Shown piece by piece: positions 2,002 to 29,529 of a stretch of 64,000 nucleotides of DNA. The notes under the pieces were generated by a model. The model saw only the letters and a program-made list of their open reading frames with translations, had not been told where the DNA came from and ran no database searches. The translations under genes were made by a program, and so were the position numbers. Origin of the DNA: Planctomycetaceae bacterium (GTDB lineage Bacteria; Planctomycetota; Planctomycetia; Planctomycetales; Planctomycetaceae); contig JAKFUG010000017.1 in NCBI GenBank assembly GCA_021732785.1, forward strand, positions 51,352-115,351, given 5' to 3'. Each line of letters opens with the position of its first letter. The stretch's first letter is position 1.

Positions 2002-3177
2002 TTACAGAATCCCCGGGCCTTTCACGTCGATGCCCTTGAGCATCATCTTCAGTTCTTCGGCGTTCGGGCTGATTTCGAAAGCATCGTTGCGGCTGATGAA
2101 TTCCATCTTCAGGAAGTGGTGCAGGCTATCGTTGAACTGCTGCATCCCTTCCTGCTTGCCAATGCGGATCGCCGCCGGGAGCTTTTCGTCGCTGCCTTCC
2201 AGAATCAGTTTCCGGATCGTGCCGTTGAAAAGCATAATCTCCTGAACGGGAACGCGCTTCGGCTTGTCGACGATCGTCGCCAGCAGTTTCTGGGCGACGA
2301 TCGCTTTCATGTTGAAGCCCATCGAGCTACGGAGCGCGTTGTGCATGCTCTGCGGGAAGAGGTCGAGAATACGTCCGATGGTCGACGGCGCGGATGAAGC
2401 GTGAATCGTTCCATACACGAGGTGCCCTGTTTCGGCGGCGTGCATGGCCGTTTCGAATGTTTCGCGGTCGCGCATTTCGCCCACGAGCATGATGTCGGGG
2501 TCTTGGCGCACGGCGTGTTTCATCGCCACGTGGAAGTCGATCACATCGCAACCGAGTTCGCGCTGATTGATCAGACACTTATCGGCCGTATACACGAATT
2601 CGACAGGGTCTTCGATAGTCAGAATGTGCTTGATATAGGTGTGGTTGATGTAATCCAGCATGGATGCGATCGTCGTCGATTTGCCGGAACCGGTCACGCC
2701 GGCGAGGAGCACCATCCCCTGATCGTACACGCACAGGTCGCGCAAGATCGGCGGCAGGAACAAGCCTTCAAAGTTGGGAATGTTCCGTTCGACTTTACGG
2801 CTGACCATCCCCATCTTGCCGGTTTGAATGAAGAGGTTCACGCGGAACCGCCAGAGTTCCCCTTTGTGCTCCATCACGTGGGCATAGTCGGCCCCGCCGG
2901 TCGCGAAAAAGATTTCCTGGTTCCGCTCGTCCATCATGGGCAAGCAGATTTCTTTCATCTTCTCTTCAGTGATGGGAGGCATATCCAGCGGTTTGAGCGT
3001 GCCACGGACGCGGAGAATCGCGGGCTTGCCCACCTGCAGGTGCAAGTCCGAGCCGTTGAGTTCGATCAGCGCCTTGAACAGCTTGTTGACTTCGAGGTCG
3101 CGGAGGTTGGCGCTCCCCAGGCGAATGGAATTGAATTTGGACGCGACGGCAGAACCACCACCACTCATGAGAGACAC
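2002..3177 (-). CDS. pilT: Type IV pilus retraction ATPase PilT
   Basis: 391 aa. Walker A GVTGSGKST, Asp box and His box are present. Full-length similarity to PilT/PilU twitching-motility ATPases. Confidence 0.9.
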   Translation of the reverse strand: MSLMSGGGSAVASKFNSIRLGSANLRDLEVNKLFKALIELNGSDLHLQVGKPAILRVRGTLKPLDMPPITEEKMKEICLPMMDERNQEIFFATGGADYAHVMEHKGELWRFRVNLFIQTGKMGMVSRKVERNIPNFEGLFLPPILRDLCVYDQGMVLLAGVTGSGKSTTIASMLDYINHTYIKHILTIEDPVEFVYTADKCLINQRELGCDVIDFHVAMKHAVRQDPDIMLVGEMRDRETFETAMHAAETGHLVYGTIHASSAPSTIGRILDLFPQSMHNALRSSMGFNMKAIVAQKLLATIVDKPKRVPVQEIMLFNGTIRKLILEGSDEKLPAAIRIGKQEGMQQFNDSLHHFLKMEFISRNDAFEISPNAEELKMMLKGIDVKGPGIL

Positions 3178-3346
3178 TCCCTTGGGGAAGCACGCAAGAA
3201 AACTGCGGGAAGCCGGATCAATTCGAGACGGACACCGGGGAGCGACACGTCTCCACCAAGGCCACCATCAACGTTCATTCTAACCCAAAAGGCCGGGCGA
3301 ACGGCAAGAGGAAGCGCGCGCAATCCGTGAACGGCAGACTCTGTTT

Positions 3347-3441
3347 GAAGAGTCGGGGCGGGGGCCCCGGCCTATGGATGTAAAAATCAACCTGAAATCA
3401 TAGGTCGGGGCCCCTGCCCCGACGCCTTTGAATTCAAACGG
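3347..3441. repeat. Palindromic hairpin element, family 1 copy 1 (GTCGGGGCGGGGGCCCCGRCCTA stem, ~22 nt AT-rich loop)
   Basis: About 25-bp GC-rich inverted arms around an AT-rich loop. Near-identical copies at 13184-13280 and 16371-16462. Confidence 0.8.
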
Positions 3442-3496
3442 TCGCATCACCTGCGATCAGCATATCTATCCACACGCATTCGGCGGGAATCAGCCG

Positions 3497-4903
3497 TTAC
3501 TTTTCCGCGATGCCCGGCGCGGCCACTTTGTTTTTCTGCAGCCAATCATCCAGGGCTTTCACCTGCTCGACCGTCACCTGCTGACCCGAGAGAAGGCTGT
3601 TCGTAATGGGCAGCACTAACTGATAAACCGGTTCAAACGCAGGAGTGGTCTGGGCATTGTTGCGGAAACCGCCTTTCGCTCGTTTCGCGGCATCCATGTC
3701 GGACGCATCCAGCGCGTTAAACGCCAGGTAGAGGAACCAGAAGTTCGTTTTCCAGATGGGATTCTTCGGCTGCTGCTGGGCCGCTTTCGCCAGGTCACGA
3801 GCAAACAGGGCCACTTCCCCGACCACGGTCGGCACATTGACGGACGGATCAAACGGCACGCGTCCCAGACTGCGGGCGGCCATTGCGCGGACTTGCCAGT
3901 CGCGCGCTGGATCATTCATCACCATTCGCAGCGTATCGACGATAAACGGCTTGCGGTTCTGCAGATCGAGGGTGACATCCAGCAGGGAGAGCGCTTCCGC
4001 CAGCCGCAACTGATACCAGAAGAACTTTTTCCCGTCCTTCAACTCCGCCACGATGGCATTGGCAACTTCGTGCTTGACGGGGACGCTGGGAACGCCGTAG
4101 CGCAACAAACGCACAATGCTGCGTGCCGCGGCGATTTTCACCGCCGGCGGTTGCTCGGGATCGGCGAGCACCTTGGCGAGCAGTGGCAAACCGTCGGCAA
4201 AGGCTTCCAGCTTCAAATTCCGCTGCGTATCGGTCTCGGTGAGATCCAATTCGCCGACGAGTGTCACCGCCTGAATGCGGACATACAGATTCTTCTTCAA
4301 CAACGCTTCCGACTGCTTGACGATTTCCGCCAGAATAAAGCGGCGGAAATTTCGCACGTCGGCGGCGGGGGCGAGTTTGCCAGCTTGCTGCAGATCGCGG
4401 ATGGAAAGGTCTTCACGCTTCACGTGCAGGTTCTGCAAGTTGTCTTTTTCGCAGAGCTGGGCCAACCGATACTTGATCCCCTTCCGGATGATGTTCTTGT
4501 CTTCGTCCTTAAGATTGCCGGTGCTGCCGCGGATCGCGCTTTTGTAGCGGTTTTCGAACTTCTTCAGGTCGGCCAATTCCTCCGGAGTTACCAGCGGCTC
4601 GAAGTCGATCATGACATCGGGTCTATCTGGCGGAACTTTGTATCCCTTGGGCAAACCGGTGACGGGATCGAGATTCGGGTCAACCGGTTTCGTGGGCATC
4701 ACGGCCGGTTTCGGTTTCGCAGTTCCGCCCGGAGCGGGCTTGGTGACCGCTTTTCCCGCGGCGCCCTTTTTGGGATCGGGTTTCTTCGCCTGAGCGAAGA
4801 CCTCGCGCGCCGGGACCGTCAGCAGACTCAGCATGATGAGGCTGACTGTGAGGAAAGATCCCACAAAACGTCCATCAACCTGCGGCAATTCGGCTTGACG
4901 CAC
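3497..4903 (-). CDS. Secreted HEAT/ARM-repeat protein with Lys/Pro-rich N-terminal region
   Basis: 468 aa with an N-terminal hydrophobic signal or anchor. Repeated alpha-helical motifs resemble HEAT repeats (LLAKVLADPEQPPAVKIAAARSIVRLL). Confidence 0.45.
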   Translation of the reverse strand: MRQAELPQVDGRFVGSFLTVSLIMLSLLTVPAREVFAQAKKPDPKKGAAGKAVTKPAPGGTAKPKPAVMPTKPVDPNLDPVTGLPKGYKVPPDRPDVMIDFEPLVTPEELADLKKFENRYKSAIRGSTGNLKDEDKNIIRKGIKYRLAQLCEKDNLQNLHVKREDLSIRDLQQAGKLAPAADVRNFRRFILAEIVKQSEALLKKNLYVRIQAVTLVGELDLTETDTQRNLKLEAFADGLPLLAKVLADPEQPPAVKIAAARSIVRLLRYGVPSVPVKHEVANAIVAELKDGKKFFWYQLRLAEALSLLDVTLDLQNRKPFIVDTLRMVMNDPARDWQVRAMAARSLGRVPFDPSVNVPTVVGEVALFARDLAKAAQQQPKNPIWKTNFWFLYLAFNALDASDMDAAKRAKGGFRNNAQTTPAFEPVYQLVLPITNSLLSGQQVTVEQVKALDDWLQKNKVAAPGIAEK

Positions 4904-5464
4904 GGAGTCGTCCTCTCAGGGGAAACTCGTCATGAGCACGATACTGGGGGATTGGTGGAAGAGATACGGACCCGACAAAGACGGGAGATCACTCTACAGG
5001 AGTGTAACATAGCGACGGAACGCGCCGCCATCCGGCATTCGGGGAAACTTTCGGTTGCGACTGTCGAGACACATGAAGATTGGCGGCGAAATCGTCACGC
5101 GCGGAAAGACTCGTCCGCTTCTCTGCGGGCGACAAGACCATACCGCCTCCCTCATCGCCAGTGCAGTGTTCGTATGTTCCCGTGTTTCGTCGGCCGGAAT
5201 GGTCTGGCGTCCGGTTGTCTCGAACGAAGCCTTGCGCGCATCGAAGGGACTGACGAGTTGGTCACGGTCATTTCCTTTGGGAAACCCCTCGATCCGTCCC
5301 CGCGAAGTCGGTCGGGCTTGATCAACCACGCCCCTCCCGCCGCGAGCAAACGCGCCCCGTCACTCATCATCGCACAACCGGATCGGTGGCCCGTGTCAGT
5401 CTGCGAATGATTGCGGGCGAGACACACAGGGTAGGGAACCGTATCGTATGTCTGGAGGTTGTTC

Positions 5465-6193
5465 ATGACAGGGGCGGGGTGGATTCGAGACCAATCTGTT
5501 CGCATCGGGACTTGGCTGGGCGAACGGGAGCCGGTGGTTTTATTGAGCGCATTTCTGGTGATCGCCGGGATCTTGAGTTTTATCGAGATCGCCGACAGTG
5601 TTCGCGAGGGCGAGACGACTCACTTCGATGCCTGGGCCGTGCGGTCGCTGCGGAAGCCCGATGATCCGGCGGTCCCCATCGGTCCGCGGTGGCTGCACGA
5701 GATGGGCCGCGATGCCACGGCACTCGGCGGCATCGGCTGGCTGGTCTCATTCACGCTGGTGGTGGCCGGCTACTTGTGGCTCGCGGGGAAAAGCCATATG
5801 GCGACCTTGCTGATGGTCTCCTCCACCAGTGGAACGGCGTTGGCGTTTGGGCTGAAATCGCTGTTTGACCGGCCGCGGCCGGATGTGGTCCCGCACCTCG
5901 CGCATGTCAGTTCGAGCAGCTTTCCCAGCGCGCACTCGATGATGTCCGCGATTGTCTACACCACGCTTGGCGTCCTCGTGGCGAGTGTCGTGGCGCGACG
6001 CCGGTTGAAAGCGTACATCTTAAGTCTGTCGCTATTGCTGACCGTCGTCGTCGGTCTCAGCCGCATCTATCTCGGCGTGCATTATCCCACGGATGTGCTC
6101 GCCGGTTGGATGGCCGGCCTCGTGTGGGCGCTGCTGTGCTGGCTCATCGCACGCTGGCTGCAACGCCTGGGGACTGTCGAACGCGCCGAATGA
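5465..6193 (+). CDS. PAP2 family phosphatase (phosphatidic acid / undecaprenyl-PP phosphatase-like)
   Basis: PAP2 motifs KxxxxxxRP (KSLFDRPRP), PSAHS and SRIYLGVHYPTD. Multi-TM. GGAGG RBS before the ATG at 5465. Confidence 0.8.
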   Translation: MTGAGWIRDQSVRIGTWLGEREPVVLLSAFLVIAGILSFIEIADSVREGETTHFDAWAVRSLRKPDDPAVPIGPRWLHEMGRDATALGGIGWLVSFTLVVAGYLWLAGKSHMATLLMVSSTSGTALAFGLKSLFDRPRPDVVPHLAHVSSSSFPSAHSMMSAIVYTTLGVLVASVVARRRLKAYILSLSLLLTVVVGLSRIYLGVHYPTDVLAGWMAGLVWALLCWLIARWLQRLGTVERAE

Positions 6194-6591
6194 AGGCGAA
6201 CGGGTGCATGCGGTAATTGGATGGGAGCATCCACGAACTATTCCGGACTCCGGAGCCCCAACGGGGTGACATTCGATAGCCCAGCCCGCAGGTCTTCCGG
6301 AGGGCTGGGTTTGCGATCGCACGGCACGGGCAGCCCCACCGGGGCGCGACTCTTTCCGGATTATCCCGTCGCGCCCCGTTGGGGCTTGGCAAGGTGCTTC
6401 GATCCGTTGACCCAGGGCTGCGCGAAGACGCTGCGCCGCTGGGCTATCGAATCACGCCCCCTTTGGGGCTGAAGGCCGACCTGTCCGCCAACCGACCGCT
6501 GCGATTCCGATCCTTGCCCGGCGGAAATCGATTGTCGGAACATGCTCGTCGACGCTGCCACGCTGCTGAAGTACGACCTGCCGGACGGGTT

Positions 6592-6981
6592 CTAGCCGTT
6601 GAATCGTCGGGCGAACCATTCCCCCAGCACGACGGCCGCGAGACCCCCTGCAAAATTCGCCACGGCGTGAAACCCGCCCCACAGGAAAGCGGGGGGTTGA
6701 CGAGCAAGAGCGACCGTTTCCAGCGACAACGCCGAAAACGTGGTCAGGCCACCGAGGACACCCGTGACGAGAAACAGCCGTGCATTCACGGACAGCCATT
6801 GATGTTCGGATCCGGAACCGGCGAGATAACCAATCGCCAGGCAACCGCCGATGTTGACGATCAGCGTGCCGAGCATGGGATAGTGTGGACACCACACGGC
6901 CGCCTCGCGCGCGACGACATACCGCGCCATGGCCCCGAGTGCGCCACCGAATCCAACCATCATCAGCGACCACGCATTCAT
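6592..6981 (-). CDS. crcB: Fluoride ion channel CrcB/Fluc
   Basis: 129 aa with 4 TM helices and the conserved GxLGGxTTFS motif (GVLGGLTTFSALS). Confidence 0.85.
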   Translation of the reverse strand: MNAWSLMMVGFGGALGAMARYVVAREAAVWCPHYPMLGTLIVNIGGCLAIGYLAGSGSEHQWLSVNARLFLVTGVLGGLTTFSALSLETVALARQPPAFLWGGFHAVANFAGGLAAVVLGEWFARRFNG

Positions 6982-7089
6982 AAGGGCTCACTCCGGATGG
7001 CTGACGTGGAAAGAGGAATGTTGTTCGTCGAGTTTACAAATTCCTATCGGTTCAAGCCCTCAGTGGATCGTCTTCGGTTCGGCTCGACT

Positions 7090-7578
7090 TTATCTCAGCA
7101 CGGGAATGAATTTCAGTTCGTCGCGACATAAGTCGAGAACAGCGACCGTGAATTGTCGGGCGCGGTGCAATGCCCCGGGGTTGATGAACCGTGTCGGACC
7201 CGCGCGCCGGTCTTCCGCCACGTGCGTGTGTCCGCTCAGAAAATAGTCGGGATTCCGGGCGAGCAACCGCCGTTCTTCGACGCGCAAATGACCGTGCGTC
7301 ACGGCAATCGTCTTCTCCGCCAGGGTGATCATGCCACCCAGTTCCAGCGACCGCGCTCCGGTCACTTCGGCAATTTCCCGCAGCGCTGCGACCGAATGGT
7401 AGTCATTGTTGCCGAAGACAAAATAGCACGACAAAACGGCACACGCCTGAATGATCTCAGGTTCTGTGACATCGCCACAATGGACGATCGCTTCGGCCCC
7501 GGCGACTTGCAACAACGCAATCGCCCGTTCGCACCGGAAGAGCTGATCGTGCGTGTCGGAGAGGATGCCGAGTTTCAT
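7090..7578 (-). CDS. Metallophosphoesterase, YfcE/MJ0936 family
   Basis: 162 aa. Motifs MKLGILSDTHD, GDV and GNND, then GHTH. Confidence 0.8.
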   Translation of the reverse strand: MKLGILSDTHDQLFRCERAIALLQVAGAEAIVHCGDVTEPEIIQACAVLSCYFVFGNNDYHSVAALREIAEVTGARSLELGGMITLAEKTIAVTHGHLRVEERRLLARNPDYFLSGHTHVAEDRRAGPTRFINPGALHRARQFTVAVLDLCRDELKFIPVLR

Positions 7579-7630
7579 GGAACGTGGATTTAGCGGAGGA
7601 AAGGCGATCTATTCCGCCCCGTGCGAGCGG

Positions 7631-8728
7631 TCAGGCCGCGCGACGGGAAACGTTCGTCAGCGTGTGTTTTTCGATGAGACGCTGTAACCCCCTCCACACG
7701 CGTTCGGAGGTGAGCGCTCGATGGCACGCGAGATGTTGCTCGCCGTTGTGCGGGCACGTCTTGTGGTAACTCCCCGCGCATGAGACTTCCGTCGACACGA
7801 ATTCGTGGGCGTCGCCCGGCGGTCCCGAACGCACAGCGCTCGTGCAGGTGAAGACGCCGAGCGACGGCGTGCCCAACTCCGCGGCGAGATGCAACGGGCC
7901 GGAGTCGTTGGAAAACATCGCATCGACGGAACTCACCACGGCGGCGAGTTCCTTGATCGTCGTGCGACCGGTGAGATCGAGCACGGCGGCGTGCGGCGCG
8001 GCGGCATGAATGCGCTGCGTCATTTCTTCCGAGGCACCGCGATCGGTTTTCGCGCCGACAATCACCGCGGTCCCGCCCCACGTGTTCGCGGCGCGGGCCA
8101 GCACTTCGGCGAACCCGGCCACCGGCCACCGTTTCGTTTCCCACTTCGCGCCCCACTGCACGGCGATGAGCGGCCGCGGCAATCCCGCCAGCCACGTTCG
8201 TGCTGCCGCATGGGCTGATAAGGGAACCTGCACCAACACCCGCCGCGGCATGTCGCCGACACCGAGCATTTCCGCGACGCGCCAATAACGCGCATGCGCC
8301 GGGACAGCGCGCGTGGTGCCGGGGATGGTGTGCGTGGTCGCGAAGTGCGATCCTTCCCGCGCCGTTTCGAGACCAATGCGATACCGCGCACGGGTAGCCC
8401 ATGTCATCAAGGCGGACCGCAACAGTCCTTGCAGATCGAAGACGAGATCGAATCGCGCTTGCGATAACTCGCGGGCCAACGTCGCCACTTGCAAGAGGCT
8501 CGGACGGCGATCACAACGAATCACGGCGTCAAGATCGGGATGCCCGGTGACCAGGTCGGCCAGTTCGCGCTGAATGACCCACGTGATGTGACTGGCGGGA
8601 AAGCGTCGCCGTAATGCCGGCAGCAATGGCAACGCTTGCACGACATCCCCGAGCGCGCTCGGCTTGATGATCGCAATCCGTCGCGCATCCCGTTGCTGCC
8701 AGAATCCCGTCGTCATCGACCGCATCAT
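7631..8728 (-). CDS. Glycosyltransferase family 9 (LPS heptosyltransferase-like)
   Basis: N-terminal RIAIIKPSALGDVVQALP motif typical of RfaF/WaaC GT9 enzymes. The ORF extends to 8872; the real start is probably internal, around 8716-8728. Confidence 0.7.
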   Translation of the reverse strand: MMRSMTTGFWQQRDARRIAIIKPSALGDVVQALPLLPALRRRFPASHITWVIQRELADLVTGHPDLDAVIRCDRRPSLLQVATLARELSQARFDLVFDLQGLLRSALMTWATRARYRIGLETAREGSHFATTHTIPGTTRAVPAHARYWRVAEMLGVGDMPRRVLVQVPLSAHAAARTWLAGLPRPLIAVQWGAKWETKRWPVAGFAEVLARAANTWGGTAVIVGAKTDRGASEEMTQRIHAAAPHAAVLDLTGRTTIKELAAVVSSVDAMFSNDSGPLHLAAELGTPSLGVFTCTSAVRSGPPGDAHEFVSTEVSCAGSYHKTCPHNGEQHLACHRALTSERVWRGLQRLIEKHTLTNVSRRAA

Positions 8729-8886
8729 CCCTGATTTCCTGAAGATTCTCCATGGCATGGTAGACGGTGTGGGAGATCGCGACAACGCCTGTTTTCTGCG
8801 GACGTTGGTTCGCGGAGTGGTGGACCCGGTTGCGGTTGCCGGAACCGTCGGGCACGGCGATCGAAGTTTCATCCCGAAGGGATGTC

Positions 8887-8934
8887 AGCCATTAGCCGGT
8901 AGTTGAGCGCAGCGACACCACCGGTTAATGGCTC
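8887..8934. repeat. Hairpin element, family 4 (AGCCATTAGCCGGTGGTTGAGCGCAGCGACACCACCGG core)
   Basis: Stem-loop flanked by short CATCCCGAAGGGATG-type hairpins. Related copies at 47316-47352 and 47412-47450. Confidence 0.6.
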
Positions 8935-9519
8935 TGATCCCTCTCGGGAGCAAATGCGAAGAATGAATGCCTACGATGCGTTGAAATCGCGGCTTCAAAA
9001 CGAAAAAGCCCGGAAGCAACGGGGTCCCAGGGGGGCTGAGGACCTGCATCGCTTCCGGGCGTTCGGATCATAGGGTGATCTTGCCCAGACAAAGGGAGCG
9101 AGCGCATCCTTGCGCAGCTCCCCGCGTCCTGTCCCGTTCGAGCGACGTCGTGGCGCATCCGTGCGACAGCGAACATCTCCCGGTGCGATATTGCCACCCG
9201 CGTGGCCGACACATCCCACCCACGAAACGAGACCGGGCGGCGGGAAAATAGGGACCAACTGAAACCCCGTCAACACCAATTCGTCCGTGCAGCGCGGATT
9301 GAAAATTTGTCCGTTCGACGGGACGAGTTTCGTGAAGCGGTGCGCGATTCGCATGGAGACCGGACGTGTTCCCACACTCTGCGTGGGAACACACGGCCCA
9401 GACGCTCCGCGTCGTCGCACTGAAGTTGGCTCGTCTGCCCTCTCAAACAGGAATCGCGACGCAGAGCGTCGCGGCCGGGCGTTCCCACGCGGAGCATGGG
9501 AACGAGGATTACGAAGGTT

Positions 9520-9882
9520 TTACACCCGGCGTTGGGGTCGCGTTTTCGGTCGCGGGCGCAGCACAAAATACAGGCCGGCGGAAAACAACGCCGCGGGAAT
9601 CAGGAACTTCAACGGCACTTTCGTCCGGGCGATCATCACCAATCCGAGCATCACCCCGGCGAGTGTCTGCCACGAAATGTGCGCCCACGCGGCGTCCCGG
9701 GTGCGCGTCGGCATCGCCAGCCAGACCGCACACATCACCACGCCGACGCGCGACAACGATCCCTCAAAAACTTCCGCCGCGCCGTCTTTCACCGTGAAAT
9801 GCACGATCAACGCCAGCGCGAAGCAACTCGCGGCGATGAGCCCGATCGACCACCGATTCACAGGAATAAGTCCGGACGACAT
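9520..9882 (-). CDS. Small hypothetical membrane protein (3-4 TM)
   Basis: About 120 aa starting MSSGLIPVNRW, with hydrophobic segments and a basic C-terminus. It is the short internal version of the long 9520..10371 ORF. Confidence 0.3.
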   Translation of the reverse strand: MSSGLIPVNRWSIGLIAASCFALALIVHFTVKDGAAEVFEGSLSRVGVVMCAVWLAMPTRTRDAAWAHISWQTLAGVMLGLVMIARTKVPLKFLIPAALFSAGLYFVLRPRPKTRPQRRV

Positions 9883-10053
9883 CCTTCGATTATGGATTGA
9901 CACTGAGGACAGAGCAACGCCGTTCGATTGTGACGCCGTGTGGACCGGGATACATTGCCTCCAACTGCCCTCCCCCGGAATTCGGCTGTGCGCGATGCTG
10001 ACGAGCACGGATTGAGTTCCCCCACCGTGAGAATGAACCACAGGAGAACTTTC

Positions 10054-11004
10054 ATGCCGCGTCTGCTGGGTCTCGCCGTCCTGCTGGGTGTGTGTCTGCT
10101 TGCCGACATGAATCGGTGTGAGGCCGATGGCCCGGCGGTCACCGTTGTGGAAGTGCCGGGGCAACTCGGTGTGCGTATCGGCGGCGAGCCGTTCGCGGTC
10201 TTCAATGTGGGACCGGGGCTCGTGAAGCCGTACGTCTTCCCCTTGCGAGCCCCCGGCGGACACGTGGTCAACACGGTCGCCCCGTTCGATCACAAGCACC
10301 ACAAGGGCGTCTGGGTCGGTGTAGAACACGTCAACGGCGTGAATTTCTGGGGTGGCAAATATCAACAGCAAGACGCCGTGGACACCACGCCGAACGCGGA
10401 ACGGATCGCCAACAAAAGTATTTCCGCGACGCCGAACGCCAACGGTTCCTTAACGGTGAAAATGGTCAACGACTGGCAAGGAGAAGCCGGCAAACCCGTG
10501 GTGATTGAAACTACCGACGTGACGATCTTCCCGAATCGCCTGATGGTGTACGACATCCATCTCACGGCCGGTGCCGATCCGGTGACGTTCCAGGATACGA
10601 AAGAAGGCTTCCTCGCCATTCGCGTCGCTCCGACGATGAATGGCAAAACCGGGGGCGTGATCGTTAATGCCGCCGGGGACATGGGCGAAGAAAACTGCTG
10701 GGGCAAAACGTCGCCGTGGGTCGATTACTCCGGTCCCGTCGATGGCAAGACCGCTGGCGTCGCGCTGTTCGATCACCCCGGCAATGTGCGGCCGTCGCGC
10801 TACCACGTGCGGGCTTATGGACTGTTCGCCATCAGTCCGTTTGGTGAGAAAGTTTATTCGAAAGGCCAATCGGCCGAAGTGCCGCTCACACTGCCACCGG
10901 GGCAATCGTTCGGCGTGAAGTACGGTCTCTTTCCGCACGCGGGAGATGCCGTCGGCGGGAAAGTCGCCGAAGCCCACGCCCAGTTTGTCGAATGGACGAA
11001 GTGA
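10054..11004 (+). CDS. Secreted hypothetical protein (possibly PmoA/DUF6807-like beta-rich protein)
   Basis: Signal peptide MPRLLGLAVLLGVCLLA. Beta-rich with a conserved HKHHKGVW motif. The family assignment is tentative. Confidence 0.45.
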   Translation: MPRLLGLAVLLGVCLLADMNRCEADGPAVTVVEVPGQLGVRIGGEPFAVFNVGPGLVKPYVFPLRAPGGHVVNTVAPFDHKHHKGVWVGVEHVNGVNFWGGKYQQQDAVDTTPNAERIANKSISATPNANGSLTVKMVNDWQGEAGKPVVIETTDVTIFPNRLMVYDIHLTAGADPVTFQDTKEGFLAIRVAPTMNGKTGGVIVNAAGDMGEENCWGKTSPWVDYSGPVDGKTAGVALFDHPGNVRPSRYHVRAYGLFAISPFGEKVYSKGQSAEVPLTLPPGQSFGVKYGLFPHAGDAVGGKVAEAHAQFVEWTK

Positions 11005-11024
11005 GCGCGAAAAAAAGCGGCGCG

Positions 11025-13067
11025 TCATTCCGGCAAGGGCATCGCGACGAGGGTATTGGCTTCGGTAAAGAGGAGCGTCTTGCCGTTGGGTGTCATCGTC
11101 ACGGCATCCATTTTGCCGGTGCGTTGAAAGAGCCGTTCGCCGGAGGGAACGTCCCACACATCGCATTGACCGCGGCCGCCGATGAGCAGGCGGTGGCCAT
11201 CGGTGGAAAACGCCGCACAGGGGAAGTGCTGCGGGAACGGAACAATCCGCTTCGGTTCCAGCTTGGGGACGGTGTAAAACTGACCGCCGCGGCCGGAGTC
11301 GATGAGGATTTCATCCACACCGGGACGTGCGCAGATTGCCTGGCATTGGCCGGTTTCCACCGAAGTGACGAGCTTGCCCGATTCCAGCGACCACACGGTC
11401 ACAGTGGTTCCCGCACTGCTGACGAGGTGCTTGCCATCGGTCGCAAAGGCGATCGCGAGGAAACCGAAATTATTTTGATTGTTCGCCGGGACCGGGACCG
11501 GGATGCGGATTTTTTCATCGCCGGTCTTTGTTTCCCACACGACGAGATCGTGTCGATTCCCACCCGCCGCGCAGAGTGTGCCGTCCGCTGAAATTGCAAC
11601 CTCGTGCGCCGTGTCCGTGACGCCGGCCAGCCCGACCCTTCTCTCCAGCGTCAACGGATTCCACAGGTCGAGGTGATGCGTCCCTTTGTATTGGCCGCCG
11701 GACATCAATAGCTGTTTGCCGTCGGGAGACACTGCCGCGCCGAAATACAAACCCGCCGCTTTTCCCGGGACGCCATCGAAACGCTTGTCGAGTTTTCGGG
11801 TCGTGAGATTCCACAACAGCGCCCGCTGATCGAAACCGGTGGTCAGCACATGTTCGTTATCGGGATACGCGGTCAGCGTGAGAATGTTCCCGCGGTGACC
11901 TTCAAACTGGACGAGGCCTTCCTCATCGGGTTCGCTCACCTGCGGCGATGACAGATCGGTGGTGGCAAAGAGGTTCTCCGGATCATTGGCGGAAGCGGGT
12001 TCGTCACTCGTTCTTGGGAACCGCAACCGCCACCATTGAACGTCGCCATTGTTGGCCCCGACGAGCAACTCCGTCCCATCATGATTCAGCGCAAGCAGGT
12101 CCGGCTGCGTTTCGACCGAGAATTCGCCGAGTTTCGCGTTGGGCATCGTGCTGTCATACAACCAAAGGATTCCATCCCGGCTGGCAAACGCATACCGGCG
12201 ACCGTCACCGGAAACCGCCGGGGCCCAACCGGCCACAAACGATGTGGTCGATTTCACCGCCAGCGTTTGCGGGTCGAGATGGCGGATGCCGCTGTTCTGA
12301 CTGCCGTGCAAGGCGAGTTGCCCATCCGGTTGTTCCCACAGGGCATACGCCGAGCTGCGCTGCGGCCATTTCTCCAGCAGATCGACGGTACCGGTGGTAA
12401 GGTTCCAGCGTGCGGCATGCGGAATGGGAGGCGGCACCGCATCGCTCGAAGCCGCCCCCGCCATGAAGAGCAATTGACCATCGCGCGAGAACCGCAACAT
12501 CCGCAACGATTCCACTACGGCTTTTTCCGTTAGCAGGGAACGGCCATCGACGGTGCTCAAGACGTGGACCGGCCAGCCATAGCCCCCGACGGCCAGACGT
12601 TTTCCATCCGGAGAAAAGGCGAGTTGCTGAAACGCACTGCGAGGGGTTTCCACGTCCGGGTGAAACAACCATCCGTCTTTCAGATCGGGCAGCGTCAAAT
12701 AATGCACGCGCTGCAACGCACCAATCGCGACATGCTTTCCATCCGGGGTGACCGCCATACCACCGCGGAGACTTCCTGCGAAGGTCCCTTTCCATTCCGC
12801 TTGAATCTGCCCGGTCTGACGATCGAGCAGCAGCGCGACGTTGCTCTCCTGCAAGACGAGAATCCCCTCGGTTCCCGGCACAAACGCCAAACCGGCGATC
12901 GGCGTCCGGTCGGCGATTCGAAACCGCCGCTTCAACTGGGCGGGGAACTCCGGCGACCGGGGAGCATTCGGCGCGACGGCACGGACCGCAATCGGGGGCG
13001 TCGGCTGCGCTTCTGCCAACGTCGCAAATTGGTTCCAGAAGAGCGCGAGCAGCACAACTCGAAGCAT
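11025..13067 (-). CDS. Secreted WD40 / beta-propeller repeat protein
   Basis: 680 aa with a signal peptide and more than 10 repeats of the DG..LA.GG.DG.V.LW type. Confidence 0.8.
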   Translation of the reverse strand: MLRVVLLALFWNQFATLAEAQPTPPIAVRAVAPNAPRSPEFPAQLKRRFRIADRTPIAGLAFVPGTEGILVLQESNVALLLDRQTGQIQAEWKGTFAGSLRGGMAVTPDGKHVAIGALQRVHYLTLPDLKDGWLFHPDVETPRSAFQQLAFSPDGKRLAVGGYGWPVHVLSTVDGRSLLTEKAVVESLRMLRFSRDGQLLFMAGAASSDAVPPPIPHAARWNLTTGTVDLLEKWPQRSSAYALWEQPDGQLALHGSQNSGIRHLDPQTLAVKSTTSFVAGWAPAVSGDGRRYAFASRDGILWLYDSTMPNAKLGEFSVETQPDLLALNHDGTELLVGANNGDVQWWRLRFPRTSDEPASANDPENLFATTDLSSPQVSEPDEEGLVQFEGHRGNILTLTAYPDNEHVLTTGFDQRALLWNLTTRKLDKRFDGVPGKAAGLYFGAAVSPDGKQLLMSGGQYKGTHHLDLWNPLTLERRVGLAGVTDTAHEVAISADGTLCAAGGNRHDLVVWETKTGDEKIRIPVPVPANNQNNFGFLAIAFATDGKHLVSSAGTTVTVWSLESGKLVTSVETGQCQAICARPGVDEILIDSGRGGQFYTVPKLEPKRIVPFPQHFPCAAFSTDGHRLLIGGRGQCDVWDVPSGERLFQRTGKMDAVTMTPNGKTLLFTEANTLVAMPLPE

Positions 13068-13183
13068 CGGAAAAACTCCTGCAGCGGTGCGAATGACCGT
13101 GGAAAAGGATCACCGCATCGTATCGCAGGCACATCGCTCGTTCCAGATGCGCAGCAGTGCCGAATTGATCCGGGGGCCACATT

Positions 13184-13280
13184 GAAGAGTCGGGGCGGGG
13201 GCCCCGACCTAAGATTTTAGACTGATTTTACATCCATAGGTCGGGGCCCCCGCCCCGACGTCTTTGGATTCAAACGGCCC
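13184..13280. repeat. Palindromic hairpin element, family 1 copy 2 (loop inverted relative to copy 1)
   Basis: Same stems and flanks as 3347-3441, but the loop sequence is its reverse complement. Confidence 0.8.
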
Positions 13281-13366
13281 GTACCCAGAATTGAACCGGG
13301 ATCTATGATGGGAGACAATCGTACCTTCTGTTTGTTTCACATCATCGGAACACCGAGAACGCCGCG

Positions 13367-14164
13367 ATGGCAGACGCCGGTCATCCGTCACAGACTGCAT
13401 GGTGGCAACGGTTGCGGCCGTGGTGGCAACCGGCGGTCGATTTTTTGTTTCCCCCGGCATGTCTGGTATGTGGTGCGTCCCCATCCGATTTGGAGAGCGT
13501 GTTCTGTGATGCGTGCGCCGACCAGTTGCAGAATGCGCCGGGAGCCCATTGCACGCGGTGCGGGGCCGCGGTCGGACCGAATCTGGTGACACTTTCCGGC
13601 TGCGGGCATTGTCACGGTGAGCATTTTGCCTTTCGACGGGTGATCGCCCTGGGCGTTTATGACGGTGCGCTGCAGGCGGCGATCGGGCACGGCCAGCAAG
13701 TTCACGGCGGTCCCTTGATGCGCGGGCTGACCGATTTGTTGATGGCCGATCATCTCACCGAGTTTCTCGCCGAAGAATTCGACGCCGTCGTCCCGATTCC
13801 ACAGGATTGGCAACGGCGGTTCTTCGGCATCCATTCGGCGGCGGAGACCGTCGCCGAACGGTTAGCCGAACGGTTGCAGCGGCCAATGCGGGCGTCGATT
13901 CTTCGCAAGCCGCGGCCGACGCCATCGCAAACCGGCGCGGCTCCGAGCGTGCGACGAGTCCAGCAGCGCGGGGCCTTTGAAGTCCCGACGGGGATGATCC
14001 TGACCGGGGCTCGTATTCTGCTCGCCGATGACGTTCTCACCACCGGGGCGACTGCGGAAGCCGCCACCCGCGCGCTGAAAGCCGCGGGAGCCGCCGATGT
14101 GGTGGTCGCCGTCATCGCCCGGGGCTTGGGAGCGAGTTCCGTCCGTGCCGCGCGGGTGGAATAA
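13367..14164 (+). CDS. comF: ComF family protein (phosphoribosyltransferase domain, competence-associated)
   Basis: N-terminal Cys-rich zinc finger (CLVCG...CDAC...CTRCG) followed by a PRTase fold (ILLADDVLTTGAT). Confidence 0.8.
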   Translation: MADAGHPSQTAWWQRLRPWWQPAVDFLFPPACLVCGASPSDLESVFCDACADQLQNAPGAHCTRCGAAVGPNLVTLSGCGHCHGEHFAFRRVIALGVYDGALQAAIGHGQQVHGGPLMRGLTDLLMADHLTEFLAEEFDAVVPIPQDWQRRFFGIHSAAETVAERLAERLQRPMRASILRKPRPTPSQTGAAPSVRRVQQRGAFEVPTGMILTGARILLADDVLTTGATAEAATRALKAAGAADVVVAVIARGLGASSVRAARVE

Positions 14165-14322
14165 ATCGAAACAACGATTCGAGGCGTGTGCCAAGGTGGC
14201 CTTGTTGGCGCAGGCTTCGTACTGGACAATAACATCTCGACAAACTCATGCCGGTTGGCTCAGCACTGCAAGCCTGGCACCCCGGTGATGCTCGTTGTTT
14301 TATCGAATCGTGAAGGCTTCGC

Positions 14323-15255
14323 GTGACGGTTTCTGAAACGTCTGTTGTTCGTCTGGCAACCCGCGGCAGTGCGTTGGCCCTGTGGCAGGCCCGGCATATT
14401 TCCGGCCTGATTCAACACGCCAGCCCCGGCACCACCGTGGAACTCGTGGAAATCTCCACAACCGGCGATCGCGTGCAGTCGCAACCGCTCCGCGACATGG
14501 GCGGCACCGGGGTCTTCACGCGGGAAGTGCAAGTCGCCGTGCTTGACGGCCGCGCCGATCTCGCGGTGCATAGTTTGAAGGACCTGCCCACCGAAACCGC
14601 ACCAGGTCTGGCACTCGCGGGGATTCCCGAACGGGGCGTGACCGCCGATGCGCTGGTCCTGCCAAAAGGAAGTTCGCTCGCACCGCAATGGGAAGCGTTA
14701 CCGCCGGGGGCTCGTGTCGGCACCGGCAGTCCGCGGCGGCAATCGCAACTGCGGTATCTCCGCCCCGATTTGCAACTCAGCGAAATCCGGGGCAATGTCG
14801 AAACGCGATTGCGGAAACTGGATGACGGTGAATATGACGCTCTGATTCTTGCCTCCGCGGGGTTGATTCGGCTCGGTTTGGAACAGCGGATTTCGTGTCC
14901 GATTGCGCCGCCGGTGATGTACCCCGCCGTCAGTCAGGGGGCGATTGGTCTCGAATGCCGGGCCGATGACGCCGCCACGCAGCGGTTGCTGCAACTCATC
15001 ACGCATGGGCCGACATGGGCCGCGGCACTCGCCGAACGGTCGCTGTTGCGATCATTACGCGCCGGCTGTCACGCCCCGGTCGGCGTCAGTACGCGGGTGG
15101 ACGGAAACGCCTTGCAAATGGAAGCCGTCGTGCTTTCCCCCGATGGAACAAAACGCTGGATCGCCACCGCGACCGGGACCGTTACCGATCCCGAACCGCT
15201 CGGAGCCGAAGTCGCCAAGTCCCTCATCGACCAGGGTGCCGCCGCCGTTTTGTAA
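14323..15255 (+). CDS. hemC: Hydroxymethylbilane synthase (porphobilinogen deaminase)
   Basis: 310 aa with RLATRGSALALWQA, the dipyrromethane cofactor region and a C-terminal domain. GTG start. Confidence 0.9.
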   Translation: MTVSETSVVRLATRGSALALWQARHISGLIQHASPGTTVELVEISTTGDRVQSQPLRDMGGTGVFTREVQVAVLDGRADLAVHSLKDLPTETAPGLALAGIPERGVTADALVLPKGSSLAPQWEALPPGARVGTGSPRRQSQLRYLRPDLQLSEIRGNVETRLRKLDDGEYDALILASAGLIRLGLEQRISCPIAPPVMYPAVSQGAIGLECRADDAATQRLLQLITHGPTWAAALAERSLLRSLRAGCHAPVGVSTRVDGNALQMEAVVLSPDGTKRWIATATGTVTDPEPLGAEVAKSLIDQGAAAVL

Positions 15256-15310
15256 CCGATGCCCAATCGACGCTTGCGGTTTCGCGCCCCGCGCCGATTT
15301 ACGCCGTGCG

Positions 15311-15505
15311 TTAATCTTCACTCTGCGCCCGCAAAATCGTCGGCGATTGGCTGGGCGAGAGCGACGTGAATTCCGGGTCCTGCGAGGGGGCCGGATGGCG
15401 GTTCAGCCGATGCAGCCGGTGGGGCTTCAGCTCGTGCAGCAGGGAAGCGCAGCCGATCAGGTTCGAGGCGGCGAGAATCATCACCAGCATGCCGATGCGT
15501 GACAT
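15311..15505 (-). CDS. Small putative lipoprotein (64 aa)
   Basis: AAGGAG RBS 8 nt upstream of the ATG for MSRIGMLVMILAASNLIGC. Lipobox LIGC. Confidence 0.4.
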   Translation of the reverse strand: MSRIGMLVMILAASNLIGCASLLHELKPHRLHRLNRHPAPSQDPEFTSLSPSQSPTILRAQSED

Positions 15506-15671
15506 GGCTTTCTCCTTCACGAGACCGACCTTCCTCCCGAAGTATCGATGGGGGCTGTCGTTGTTCTAAAACCGTGCTTGAATTACCAGAAGCCCAATTC
15601 CGCGGATGATCGCTCGAGTTACCGATGGAATCCCAAACTTCGTTGCCAATGCGGCGAAATCTGCCGCCCGT

Positions 15672-16172
15672 TCATTCCCGAGGCGAGGGTTCACTTCGTG
15701 GCGGCGGCGTTTTCGGAGTCACTCGTTTCGGTGTGGGACGCACGGGCGGTTGCACCGAGGGAATCGGGTCCAGTCCCGACAAGTCAATCGGCCGGAACGC
15801 GATCCGAATGCCGGGATCGACGGGATACAGCGAGCGACTGACCAGCCAGCCGTCACTTGGGAAGAACGATGGGGCAGCGGAAAGAACGCCGTGGCGGCGT
15901 TGTTCGATCCTGGCTTTGCGTTCCTGTGCGGCCTGCGCGGCCCGGGCATGAACCCGCTGTTGAGCCGGGGACGGTTCCGCAGCCGGTGCGGGGCGATGCG
16001 GAATGGGCGCGATCAGAGCCGGTTCGCTGGGCAGCGGCGGCGGTGGTGTCAGCGGTTGAAGGGCCGCGGGCGGAGTGGTTTCGGCGAACGGATCGGCTTC
16101 TTCTTCCGCACGGAGGCACTGCCCCGCGGTCAGCAGAAATCCGCACACAAAAGCCGTCAACCACCGGCGCAT
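15672..16172 (-). CDS. Secreted proline-rich hypothetical protein
   Basis: Signal peptide MRRWLTAFVCGFLLTAG followed by a Pro/Ala-rich low-complexity region. Confidence 0.35.
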   Translation of the reverse strand: MRRWLTAFVCGFLLTAGQCLRAEEEADPFAETTPPAALQPLTPPPPLPSEPALIAPIPHRPAPAAEPSPAQQRVHARAAQAAQERKARIEQRRHGVLSAAPSFFPSDGWLVSRSLYPVDPGIRIAFRPIDLSGLDPIPSVQPPVRPTPKRVTPKTPPPRSEPSPRE

Positions 16173-16370
16173 CGAAGAGCGCTCCCGGACAAACTGACGT
16201 GATTCTCCATCCATGAGGAATCAACACCGCTTGCCATCATCCTTCATCGGGCGACAACCCGGCCGACATGCAGGCGATTTGGCAGTTTACGCAAACTTTT
16301 CCGATTTTGCTGAGATTGCGGACGACGATTCGATTCGTGATTCCCTTCCGTAGTGAGTCCGCTTCAACTT

Positions 16371-16462
16371 AAGAATGTCGGGGCGGGGGCCCCAACCTAT
16401 GATTTCCCATGGATTTTCATATATATAGGTCGGGGCCTCTGCCCCGACTCTTGAAACCGACC
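16371..16462. repeat. Palindromic hairpin element, family 1 copy 3
   Basis: GTCGGGGCGGGGGCCCCAACCTATG ... ATAGGTCGGGGCCTCTGCCCCGAC. Lies in the divergent region upstream of recQ. Confidence 0.8.
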
Positions 16463-16595
16463 CACGATCTTCACTTCCTCCCGAGAGGGCAGCCCCTGCC
16501 GGGTCTGACGATCCAACGCTGGGAACTCGCCGAAAAGTTGTGTACGGTGCCGTGAACGTTTTTCGCCCATCCCCCACGCAGGAAATTGCCCCACC

Positions 16596-18806
16596 ATGTC
16601 CGCGACGACCGATGAATTGCGGTTGTTGCAGGCGGCTTTGCACAAGCATTGGGGCTACGACGGCTTCCGACCGCATCAGCAGGCGGCGATGCAGGCCGTG
16701 CTGGATGGCCGCGATTCCGTCGTCGTGCTGCCGACCGGTGGCGGAAAGTCGCTGTGTTATCAAGCCCCGGCGGTCATCCTGGAAGGCGTGGCGATCATCG
16801 TGTCGCCCCTCATCTCGCTGATGAAGGACCAGGTGGACAGCCTCCGTGAATGCGGCATCCCCGCGGCGGCGGTCAACAGTTCACAATCGGCTGCCGAACG
16901 GAGCGCGATCGCCGCGGAATTGCGGGCCGGTCGGCTCAAGCTGTTGTACGTCGCCCCCGAACGGCTTTGCACCGACCGGATGCTGCACTTCCTGCTGGAA
17001 CTGAAAATCTCGTTCATCGCCGTCGATGAAGCGCACTGTATCAGTAATTGGGGACACGATTTTCGTCCGGAGTTCCGGTTGCTGGGCCAACTCCGCAATA
17101 CGTTCCCCGATGTCGCCGTGCATGCTTACACCGCCACAGCCACCGAACTCGTTCGGCAGGACATCGCCGAGCAACTCCGGCTGAACGATACCGAATTCAT
17201 CGTCGGTTCGTTTGATCGCCCCAACCTGCAATACCGCGTGATGCGGCGGCAACAGGTAAAGTCGCAAATCCGCGATGTCATCGCCCGGCACAAAGGCGAA
17301 TCGGGCATCATTTACTGCATCTCGCGGCGGGAAGTCGATTCCACCGCCGCCGATCTGAAAGCCGACGGTTACCGCGCGCTCCCATATCACGCCGGGCTGA
17401 CCGACATCCAGCGGGTCAAACATCAGGACATGTTCGTCAACGACAAGGTCGACATCATCGTCGCCACGGTCGCGTTCGGCATGGGAATCGACAAGCCCGA
17501 TGTCCGCTTCGTCATCCACGCCGCGGCTCCAAAGTCGGTCGAGCATTATCAGCAGGAAACCGGCCGCGCGGGTCGTGATAGCCTCCCCGCCGAATGTGCC
17601 CTGTTCTACAGCCACGGCGACTTCATGACGTGGGAGAAGATGCAGTCCGACCTGGAAGGCGACGCCGCATCGCAGATGAAGGCCAGCCTGAAATTGATGG
17701 AGCACTATTGCTCGTCGATGAGCTGCCGGCATCGCACGCTGGTCGAGCATTTCGGACAGGACTACGACGGCGACAACTGTGCCGCATGCGATGTCTGCCT
17801 CGATCAACTGGAACTCGTGGCCGAGCCGCTGATTGTCGCGCAGAAGATTCTGTCGTGTGTGGTCCGTGTGCGGGAGATGTTCGGGGCGATGTATGTTTCT
17901 CAAGTGTTATGCGGCTCGCAGGAAGCCCGCATTCTGGAGAACGGCCACGATCGGTTGTCGACTTACAATTTGCTTGGGGACCTCCATCAGAACGTCGTGC
18001 GGGAATGGATCGAGCAACTCGTCGGGCAGGGATGTCTCGCGAAAGATGGCGAATATCGCACGTTGAAAGTGACGGCGTTTGGTCGGCAGGTGCTCAAGGG
18101 AGAAGCCGTCCCGCGGTTGCTGCAACCGACGAAAAAACGCGCCGCGACCACATCCACGACTTCGAAGGCAGCCGTTGACGAACAACCGTTTGATGCGGGA
18201 TTGTTCGAGTTTCTGCGGGCCTTGCGGAAGGAACTTGCCGAAGCCCGCGGCATCCCGCCATTCATGGTGTTCGGTGATGTGACCTTGCGGGACCTGGCCC
18301 GACGCCGCCCGGTGACCGCGGAAGCATTTCATGAAGTGCATGGCGTCGGCGATCGCAAAGCCGCCGAATATGGTGAGGTGTTTCGTGCGGCAATCGCCGA
18401 GTATTGCACCGCGCAGCAGTTGCCGACCGAAGTCGCTGTCCCGAAGGGGATCGTGCCCCCGGTTGTAAGCGAACGGCCGAAAGATCCTTCCGAGCGCAGT
18501 GCAGCGCAATGTACCGCGGATGGATACTTTCGCAGCGGCATGATGGTGGAGCAAGTCGCCGTGAAAATGAGCCGCGCGGTTTCCACCACGCGGCAATACC
18601 TCACGGAGTTCCTGCGCTTCGATCGGCGCACCTCACCGGAACCGTGGCTCGATCCGGCGGTCTTCGATCGCATTGCCGTTGTCGCCGCCGACTATCCGGA
18701 TGAACGTCTCAAGCCGTTGTTCGAGCATTTCGAAGGCGTGATTTCGTACGACGATTTGCGCGTGGCAATGGTGTGCCTGCGAAACCGCCAGGTCACGACC
18801 CTATAA
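16596..18806 (+). CDS. recQ: ATP-dependent DNA helicase RecQ
   Basis: 736 aa with DEAH helicase motifs ([17 protein letters not shown]), the RecQ zinc-binding and winged-helix regions and a C-terminal HRDC-like region. Confidence 0.9.
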
Positions 18807-18828
18807 TCCTTTTCGCGAAACAATCTCA

Positions 18829-18892
18829 ACAAGCCGGAAGCGCAAGCGCCCGGTTCTTTCGTAGTGACCGGGCGTTCGCGCTTCCGGCTTGT
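18829..18892. repeat. Hairpin element, family 2 (ACAAGCCSGAAGCGCRAGCGCCSGGT inverted arms)
   Basis: Sits immediately 3' of recQ. Related copies at 29530-29627, 45822-45908 and 49329-49415. Confidence 0.7.
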
Positions 18893-26152: not shown

Positions 26153-26164
26153 TTGGTTACAGAC

Positions 26165-29516: not shown

Positions 29517-29529
29517 TGACCGCGATACA

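Follow-up and report, generated by a model that had tools for sequence, protein, structure and literature searches.

A hairpin repeat of probable REP/REPIN class in a Planctomycetaceae genome and the inverted loop of one of its copies

Repetitive extragenic palindromic (REP) sequences of the tagged type are short stem-loops with an unpaired tag of the GTAG type, occurring mostly as head-to-head or tail-to-tail dimers with spacers of 20-100 nt (PMC3733652). Such dimers can fold into larger hairpins, and conserved spacers are typical of the head-to-head ones (PMC3733652); two inverted REPs together with the spacer between them constitute a REPIN (PMC3337134). The GTAG/CGTC REP superfamilies (Di Nocera et al. 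2013, PMC3733652), REPINs (Bertels & Rainey 2011, PMC3116915, PMC3337134), and the bacterial interspersed mosaic elements (BIMEs) of Escherichia coli are the systems nearest to the element described here, i.e., a GC-rich hairpin with an AT-rich loop, present in three copies within a 64-kb stretch of DNA (hereafter, the window) of a Planctomycetaceae bacterium (GenBank assembly GCA_021732785.1, contig JAKFUG010000017.1, positions 51,352 to 115,351). We consider it probable that the three sites are REP/REPIN-like palindromic repeats of Planctomycetaceae and, jointly with this, that the loop of the second copy was flipped by a rare accident of replication or recombination and is not a genetic switch.

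Direct reading of the sequence placed the three hairpins where an earlier note on this DNA had put them (3347-3441, 13184-13280, and 16371-16462; copies 1, 2, and 3, respectively), and the GC-rich inverted arms described there were confirmed in all of them as near-identical sequences of 23-25 nt. The arm pattern GTCGGGGCGGGGGCCCCGRCCTA, with up to three mismatches allowed, has exactly six matches in the window, two per copy and on opposite strands, while none would be expected (0 of 100 dinucleotide-preserving shuffles of the window contained any match). The ends proposed previously turned out to be too narrow, as degenerate outer inverted repeats extend the copies to approximately 3335-3450, 13172-13284, and 16350-16468.

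Copy 1 (3335-3450, + strand) has the canonical arrangement, i.e., a short-linker side, a forward loop, and a long-linker side, and its RNA fold reaches -69.9 kcal/mol (z -9.4). Its left arm (3352-3374, +) is a REP-type unit on the - strand, composed of an ATAG tag and GCCGGGGC-CCCC-GCCCCGAC. It is followed by the AT-rich loop, or spacer, TGGATGTAAAAATCAACCTGAAATCA (3375-3400, +), for which loop alignments indicate the forward, that is the majority, orientation, by the right arm (3401-3423, +; TAG plus GTCGGGGC-CCCT-GCCCCGAC, making two G:T wobbles with the left arm), and by the long linker (GCCTTTGAATTCAAAC, a mini-palindrome) with the degenerate outer inverted repeat (3424-3450, +). Copy 2 (13172-13284, +) consists of a short side, a reverse loop, and a long side; its 23-nt arms are perfectly complementary, and its loop AGATTTTAGACTGATTTTACATCCA (13212-13236, +) is the reverse complement of the majority orientation of the family. 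Copy 3 (16350-16468, -) is again canonical and inserted the opposite way, with GTAG at 16350 beginning the long-linker side and the loop (16400-16425) reading TATATATGAAAATCCATGGGAAATCA on the - strand.

For comparison, loops were defined as the sequence between CCTA and TAGG, and then aligned. As previously claimed, loop 2 in its reverse complement corresponds to loop 1, with 20 matching positions over 26 columns, a score reached by none of 5000 shuffles, and the direct alignment of the two loops is at chance level (p = 0.20). That the loops are unrelated AT-rich sequences, reverse-complementary by coincidence, is an idea to which we attach practically no probability. They are indeed short and AT-rich, and 6 of the 26 aligned positions differ, but the shuffles preserved composition, and about 20 copies, distributed over this genome and a related one, conform to one loop consensus. 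Nor is the element confined to the three sites, since dozens of copies were found in the latter genome.

The earlier statement that the flanks keep a common orientation holds for copies 1 and 2, which share ..TTGAAGA on the left and G(C/T)CTTTG(A/G)ATTCAAACGG on the right, but not for copy 3, whose + strand lacks these flanks. Copy 3 is the entire element reverse-complemented, with no flip of the loop: a repeat finder reported 3340-3446 and 16354-16460 as the halves of an inverted repeat of 107 nt with 77% complementarity, and on the - strand the loop of copy 3 runs in the same direction as that of copy 1 (p = 2e-4 against the reverse complement, with no significance for the direct alignment). 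Relative to its own flanks, the loop is flipped only in copy 2 among the three copies of the window.

The full element measures about 115-130 nt. Read from the inner end, each arm has the form (A/T)TAG-GTCGGGGC-CCCY-GCCCCGAC, i.e., a 20-nt REP-type stem-loop with an inward tetranucleotide tag (ATAG in 61 and TTAG in 15 of 86 arms), whose 8-bp stem is Watson-Crick in 671 of 688 pairs (97.5%) over these 86 arms. The two arms form a head-to-head REP dimer around an AT-rich spacer of about 25 nt. Copies in the related genome revealed an outer inverted repeat (GT[A/C]GTGGGTCAGTTTGAA), degenerate remnants of which are present in all three window copies and which encloses the dimer in the form GT(A/C)G-TGGGTCAGTTTGAA ... 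TTCAAACTGACCCA-C(T/G)AC. This outer repeat belongs to the same unit as the arms; 54 of its 59 near-matches lie at most 70 nt from an arm, and the remaining five appear fortuitous. The linker is short on one side of the element (S: ..TTTGAAGA next to the arm) and 7-8 nt longer on the opposite side (L), where it holds a mini-palindrome, TTTGAAAAATCAAAGA or CTTTGAATTCAAAC. Due to this one-sided long linker, the polarity of the element can be read independently of the loop.

The distribution of the element was studied with a one-arm pattern, which gave at least 70 loci in species-representative genomes, at least 46 of them from the Planctomycetaceae metagenome-assembled genome (MAG) CAZAGI01; among the matches listed, two other Planctomycetaceae MAGs had single matches each. 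The same pattern found nothing (0 matches) in the viral contigs scanned, and a phage origin is thus unsupported. With arms paired at a tolerance of five substitutions, 43 complete two-arm elements were defined among the matches listed, including the three window copies. They fall into at least four subfamilies, in which the arms are common and the loop and flanks differ: subfamily A, i.e., the window type, with the loop consensus TGGATGTGAAATCAACTGAAAATCA, and subfamilies B, C, and D with other loops and flanks. All of the 40 elements examined (MAG loci and window) are intergenic by crude gene calls. Amongst 34 elements with two called neighbours, 16 are flanked by divergent genes (17 with copy 3 reassigned, as discussed below), 8 by convergent, and 10 by tandem ones (9 after reassignment). 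In the same set of 40 elements, the ends of the outer repeat were observed to hold outward-facing TTGAAT/TTCAAA hexamers.

Subfamily C is informative with regard to the maintained part of the element. One of its arms reads GAC....GTC and the partner GTC....GAC; their own stems are intact, and the inter-arm helix gains T:T and A:A mismatches. Because each arm keeps its stem here while the long hairpin becomes mismatched, the sequences indicate that the maintained unit is the arm stem-loop, which is conserved and apparently selected or homogenised. A formal count of arm pairs yielded one U-A to A-U compensatory pair, which as a single inherited event lends modest support, and no shuffle reached the observed paired percentage or covariation score.

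In many respects the element resembles tagged REPs and REPINs. It has a GC-rich imperfect palindrome with an 8-bp stem, a 4-nt loop, and an unpaired tetranucleotide at one end, many extragenic copies, inverted pairing across a spacer into a long hairpin, several subfamilies and unrelated REP families per genome, and it apparently persists at orthologous sites. Its copy number and location are likewise those of REPs, with three copies in 64 kb, at least 46 loci in one MAG, and an extragenic position, by crude gene calls, of all 40 elements examined. It differs from REPs in that the dimer is nested in a second, 18-nt inverted repeat ending in GT(A/C)G...C(T/G)AC and in that the linker is asymmetric. 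Moreover, the REP/REPIN papers PMC3733652 and PMC3337134 do not mention an inverted spacer inside a dimer.

For the census of loop orientation, each copy was oriented by linker asymmetry (S versus L), and its loop was scored separately. The pattern search and count of loop orientations proposed in the earlier note returned many copies, and the reverse orientation is a minority. Within subfamily A, the canonical order (S-forward loop-L) is found in 15 complete elements, including copies 1 and 3 and the element of MAG locus L042, and is compatible with one partial element. Three elements have the flipped order (S-reverse loop-L), i.e., copy 2 and those of loci L003 and L045, the last one only probably, as its far side is cut by a contig end, and one (L014) is symmetric (S-S). 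None of the 17 copies of subfamilies B (n = 10) and C (n = 7) is flipped, the loop being concordant with the linker polarity throughout.

Copy 2 joins a long linker of the GAATTC type with the loop bases of the window lineage (GATTTTACATCC, as in copy 1), while L003 and L045 join a linker of the TGATTTTT type with its usual loop subtype and have the derived bases ACTTCAC in common, which suggests that these two probably descend from one flipped ancestor. The comparison of linker and loop subtypes thus points to at least two independent loop inversions in the family. A separate gain of the long linker on the other side, which could mimic a loop inversion, was rejected as unlikely, because the linker subtype fits the loop subtype within each flipped copy. 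Symmetric S-S elements were observed in L014 (5627-5698) and L078, and L045 (5-75) could be the reciprocal long-long form; they may be the expected product of recombination between arms of two copies, i.e., of a large inversion. Such large chromosomal inversions might explain L014, L078, and perhaps L045, and they would not explain copy 2 or L003.

Flipped copies are also distinguished by their arms. Fully Watson-Crick 23-nt arms are present in 3 of 3 flipped and in 1 of 16 canonical subfamily A copies (Fisher one-sided p = 0.004; p = 0.02 with the MAG pair counted as one event), a contrast that fits template switching or recombination between the arms. Template switching between inverted repeats is known to homogenise the arms and to invert the spacer (PMC8604942); template-switch mutations have been credited with loop inversions (PMC8794818), and arm correction has been reported in proteobacterial inverted repeats (PMC5941160). 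The element resembles these template-switch (quasipalindrome) mutations (PMC8794818, PMC8604942, PMC5941160) in the inverted spacer, untouched flanks, arms made perfect, and independent recurrence. It differs from them in that the substrate is a dispersed repeat of the mobile type, in which a flipped copy can be compared with unflipped paralogues and has perhaps been propagated. A similar spacer inversion is the phenomenon known in chloroplast DNA as the small inversion in a hairpin loop.

The family would spread, or would once have spread, as a non-autonomous element through single-stranded hairpin intermediates, in a REPIN-like manner. For the flip, we propose the following molecular route, based on the inversion, its recurrence, and the perfect arms, which are seen in the copies themselves. 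Perfect inverted arms of 23-25 nt would permit a template switch across the hairpin during replication; alternatively, the two arms could recombine intramolecularly, which together with gene conversion would result in an identical trace. Either event would invert the spacer and simultaneously render the arms perfectly complementary, and the flipped copy would be fixed and heritable in place, and itself open to propagation. As no part of the element is less conserved than the loop, the latter may well be functionally neutral, with an orientation irrelevant to the persistence of the element. The earlier note had viewed the sites as invertible hairpins, in which recombination between the inverted arms turns the loop; this agrees with the data in so far as the loop was inverted, with flanks fixed, more than once, but not in the sense of a switch.

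The site of copy 2 could be compared with its counterpart in the MAG. Locus L042 keeps the gene order of the window around this copy, i.e., WD40 (-), followed by ComF-like and HemC (+), with amino-acid identities of 59%, 80%, and 84%, respectively. Its element lies at near-equal distances to both genes, with the short side on the left and the long side on the right, as in copy 2. The arms of the two elements are identical at 44 of 46 positions, and the surrounding intergenic DNA gives no alignment. The loop is forward in L042 and reverse in copy 2 (the L042 loop shares 13 of 25 positions with the copy 2 loop when the latter is reverse-complemented, versus 6 of 25 in the direct comparison). The simplest reading of this similarity is that an old resident element occupies the site and that its loop was inverted in the window lineage. 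It may also be proposed that copy 2 is a later insertion of a variant flipped once in a master copy, or that this variant replaced the resident copy, the orthologous elements being independent insertions at a favoured site. L003 and L045, with their shared derived bases, indicate that a flipped variant can occupy more than one locus, and the near-identity of arms within unalignable orthologous DNA looks as if the elements postdated the species split. We nevertheless find this proposal unlikely, because the linker and loop bases of copy 2 are nearest to those of copy 1 of the same genome and not to the flipped MAG lineage, and because the two genomes agree in flank polarity and in where the element lies with respect to its two neighbouring genes. 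Even then, the original loop inversion would be required, and the place of the event would change, not its mechanism.

Programmed inversion, in which the arms would be recombination sites of a site-specific or HUH enzyme and the loop would toggle a directional signal in intergenic regions (a protein-binding site, an outward promoter, or a polar terminator), was considered as well. Known switches of the fimS and hin/gin type invert hundreds of bp with a promoter, their recombinase is encoded nearby, and both states coexist. The present element is similar to them in having a segment bounded by inverted repeats and seen in both orientations; it is dissimilar in that its inverted segment measures 25 nt, the search for a recombinase (about 0.5 Mb) was negative, and the states appear to be fixed. 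The exact inversion of the loop between inverted arms with unmoved flanks, the occurrence of at least two flips, the many copies in divergent promoter regions, the conserved AAATCAA motif in the loop, and the terminator-like score of the arm stem-loop followed by the T-rich loop on one strand are all compatible with a switch. Against this, flipped copies are rare (3 of about 20 in subfamily A, none in the sister subfamilies B and C), and the derived loop bases common to both flipped MAG copies indicate one fixed ancestor. No recombinase or HUH gene was found in the approximately 0.5 Mb searched, and none near any copy. Furthermore, the loop is the least conserved part, as exemplified by the orthologous site, and the loops of other subfamilies are unrelated, while the terminator-like tail is weak and mismatched to gene orientation at copies 2 and 3. 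A programmed switch thus appears very improbable.

We assign a similarly small chance to a recurrent and possibly enzyme-assisted flip (RAYT-like or repair-coupled, acting on a cruciform) that would reorient a signal in the spacer, e.g., AAATCAA or a polar terminator made of arm plus T-rich loop. If this was true, the scattered copies of a REPIN-like family would also act as miniature orientation switches in divergent promoter regions of Planctomycetes. Logan contigs of the same strain (SRR10388212/3; L071 1-30, L072 1-35, and L079 1-40) break off, on both sides of copy 2, exactly where arm and loop meet, and the single Logan contig that reaches into the loop has the orientation of the window. 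Identical-protein look-ups returned only Logan contigs of 2-4 kb at copy 2, and no records for the recQ and pilT-like products.

The whole element folds as a single long hairpin on either strand (-58 to -75 kcal/mol, z -6.6 to -9.4), and this extreme stability could be that of a host-selected cis-acting signal which only resembles a mobile repeat and for which the orientation of the loop is irrelevant, such as a structured RNA, a bidirectional transcription barrier, an mRNA-stabilising hairpin, or a target on the DNA of a nucleoid protein or of gyrase. Conservation of the arms at the orthologous site despite diverged neighbouring DNA and the intergenic location of all copies would agree with this, and REPs elsewhere in bacteria have been credited with such roles (PMC3733652). 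However, although folding gave a stable hairpin, the covariance search for a structured RNA, which the earlier note had put forward, produced no match to a curated Rfam 15 family. At the gathering score (whole window) and at a permissive E-value (copies 1 and 2), only sub-threshold generic hairpin models of the miRNA-precursor kind appeared. The element also occupies every gene context, including divergent pairs with no transcript to end or stabilise, it has no U-tract, and its multiple subfamilies, terminal inverted repeats, and GTAG..CTAC ends are typical of a mobile repeat. For these reasons we hold a host-selected signal to be rather improbable. It was correctly noted before that the hairpins are not simple terminators, given that no U-tract follows the long hairpin and that about half of the elements lie between divergent genes. 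A consensus scan for intrinsic terminators likewise detected no T-run after the long hairpin, with a sole weak match at one arm of copy 1, and the gene context is unfitting.

Transposase genes were searched for by tblastn with E. coli RayT, by scans for HUH/tyrosine motifs including the class 3 signature, and by Pfam searches on 19 small open reading frames (ORFs) of the window; the three weak tblastn matches to RayT turned out to be ordinary enzymes. So-called REPtron-like systems with class 3 TnpA(Y1) occur mainly in Planctomycetes and Acidobacteria, with high-copy atypical hairpins around the Y1 gene (PMC6006769), and their hairpin foot CnGA (PMC6006769) would accommodate the CCGA that the arm of the present element contains. 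By motif scans, no class 3 ORF (NHVH / YV..EQ) was detected in the window and the 70 loci, and the supplementary tables of PMC6006769 in text form contain no Planctomycete entries and no matching hairpins. A link to these systems may serve only as a lead.

There is also a likeness to bacterial miniature inverted-repeat transposable elements (MITEs; Neisseria Correia/NEMIS, ERIC, and RUP; PMC3733652), which are 100-130 nt long, intergenic, and non-coding, with terminal inverted repeats and a long hairpin. Unlike MITEs, the element has a core that is a REP-type dimer, no target-site duplication is evident in its flanks by inspection, and a parent insertion sequence was rejected, as the outer inverted repeat almost never occurs without arms and no partner resembling an insertion sequence and bearing these inverted repeats was found.

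Several points weigh against a REP/REPIN-class repeat flipped by accident. First, no REP-associated tyrosine transposase (RAYT), Y1 (HUH), or other transposase was found in the neighbourhood of the copies, neither in the window nor at the 70 loci (incomplete genomes, about 0.5 Mb in total); a REPIN-RAYT system has a cognate, single-copy RAYT gene with the same REPs on its flanks. Mobility and REPIN membership are therefore inferred. Second, the inward tag is ATAG or TTAG, not the canonical GTAG of REPs, and there are three candidate 'foot' tetranucleotides, i.e., the inner ATAG, GTCG at the arm start, and the outer GTAG/GTCG. Third, classical REPs are found mainly downstream of genes, whereas about half of the copies of this element are located between divergent genes, which might hint at a function. 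Fourth, the elements of L042 and copy 2 could be independent insertions at a hot spot. Finally, the sample is small (about 20 subfamily A copies, mostly of another species) and comes from a scan that favoured well-preserved arms, and loop orientations were taken from assembled sequences, which might conceal ongoing switching.

A REP/REPIN-class repeat with an accidentally inverted spacer would be of interest in several respects. REP/REPIN-class elements have barely been described in the phylum of Planctomycetes, where a hairpin repeat can now be placed with its full anatomy. Linker asymmetry makes the family a natural recorder of spacer-inversion events, and the homogenised arms of flipped copies are what template switching at inverted repeats is expected to leave behind. 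Complete genomes would make it possible to gauge, from this family, the frequency of such events in bacteria and to test the neutrality of REPIN spacers. Genome annotation should treat these hairpins as repeats to be masked, and not as terminators, small RNAs, or switches. In addition, short-read assemblies fragment at them.

The gene context of the window copies was established from Pfam matches and homology to the related MAG. Copy 1 is flanked by two genes of the - strand, i.e., the 3' end of a HEAT-repeat gene (3497-4903) and the 5' end of a PilT-like ATPase gene (2002-3177). Copy 2 lies between divergent genes encoding a WD40 protein (11025-13067, -) and a ComF-like phosphoribosyltransferase (13367-14164, +). 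Copy 3 has an ORF (15672-16214, -) on its left and recQ (16596-18806, +) on its right. This ORF lacks a Pfam match, was missed by the crude gene caller, and finds its sole support in a 39%-identity homologue in the MAG, so copy 3 is provisionally, and probably, located between divergent genes. The former assertion, by which divergent regions hold two of the three copies, is thus probably correct, being clear for copy 2 and dependent on ORF 15672-16214 for copy 3.

Outside the Planctomycetaceae, a GTAG-tagged version of the arm stem-loop was found, among the matches listed, in Chloroflexota, Dehalococcoidia, Stenotrophomonas, Pseudorhodobacter, and others. The Chloroflexota MAG JAUYDU01 (L008, L025, L026, L031, L038, L039, L048, L059, and L062) carries many copies of a different composite repeat, in which a GTAG-tagged GTCGGGGC..GCCCCGAC stem-loop stands beside a second palindrome (GTAGGGCAGGGCCCCAGCCCTGCC); in L059 it forms a tandem unit. 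A metagenome scan with a pattern of short linker plus arm gave five matches, i.e., one canonical element, one symmetric, and three with a short or no spacer or incomplete.

The window contains further repeats. A second inverted-dimer family, REPIN-like in architecture and unrelated in sequence to the three-copy hairpin element, was observed at 18824-18895, 29525-29628, 45817-45910, and 49325-49418, with single arms near 25264-25285 and 37226-37247; it has arms (C)TACAAGCCCGAAGCGCGAGCGCCGGGT, spacers of 20-45 nt and variable sequence, and outward ..GCTTGTAG / GTGA ends. Four canonical 5'-GTAG-tagged REPs (GTAGGGTTTGCCGAGTCC..CG.GGCGAACC) of alternating orientation are located at 26163-26194, 26502-26533, 26762-26792, and 27466-27496. 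The 157-aa ORF bracketed by this cluster (26839-27312, -) was considered as a RAYT and rejected, as it encodes a membrane/zinc-ribbon protein. Another dispersed hairpin family is represented by inverted pairs of short tandem motifs (GAGTCGAGAG.. and GTCAAG..), the arms being separated by 70-90 nt, at 1958-2006, 48132-48168/48239-48273, and 60123-60157/60248-60282.

Repeats of 52-56 nt (..AGCCGGTGGTTGAGCGCAGCGACACCACCGG..), 85-91% identical or complementary to each other, occur at 8871-8926, 47302-47353, and 47412-47467, and two of them form a hairpin at 47.3-47.5 kb beside the gene of a sigma factor of the extracytoplasmic function (ECF) type (46611-47378). A near-perfect palindrome of 31+31 nt without a spacer is present at 51333-51394, and a 30-nt exact inverted match (GAACCACGGAATACACGGAGGACACGGAAG) joins two sites 26 kb apart (25048-25210 and 51228-51257). 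Apart from repeats, a c-di-AMP riboswitch (ydaO/yuaA class) was recognised at 33335-33507 (-), with 55.7 bits versus a gathering score of 38, and two adjoining small ORFs at 33745-34641 (+), with weak Pfam matches to a RelE toxin and an MqsA/helix-turn-helix antitoxin, may constitute a toxin-antitoxin pair.

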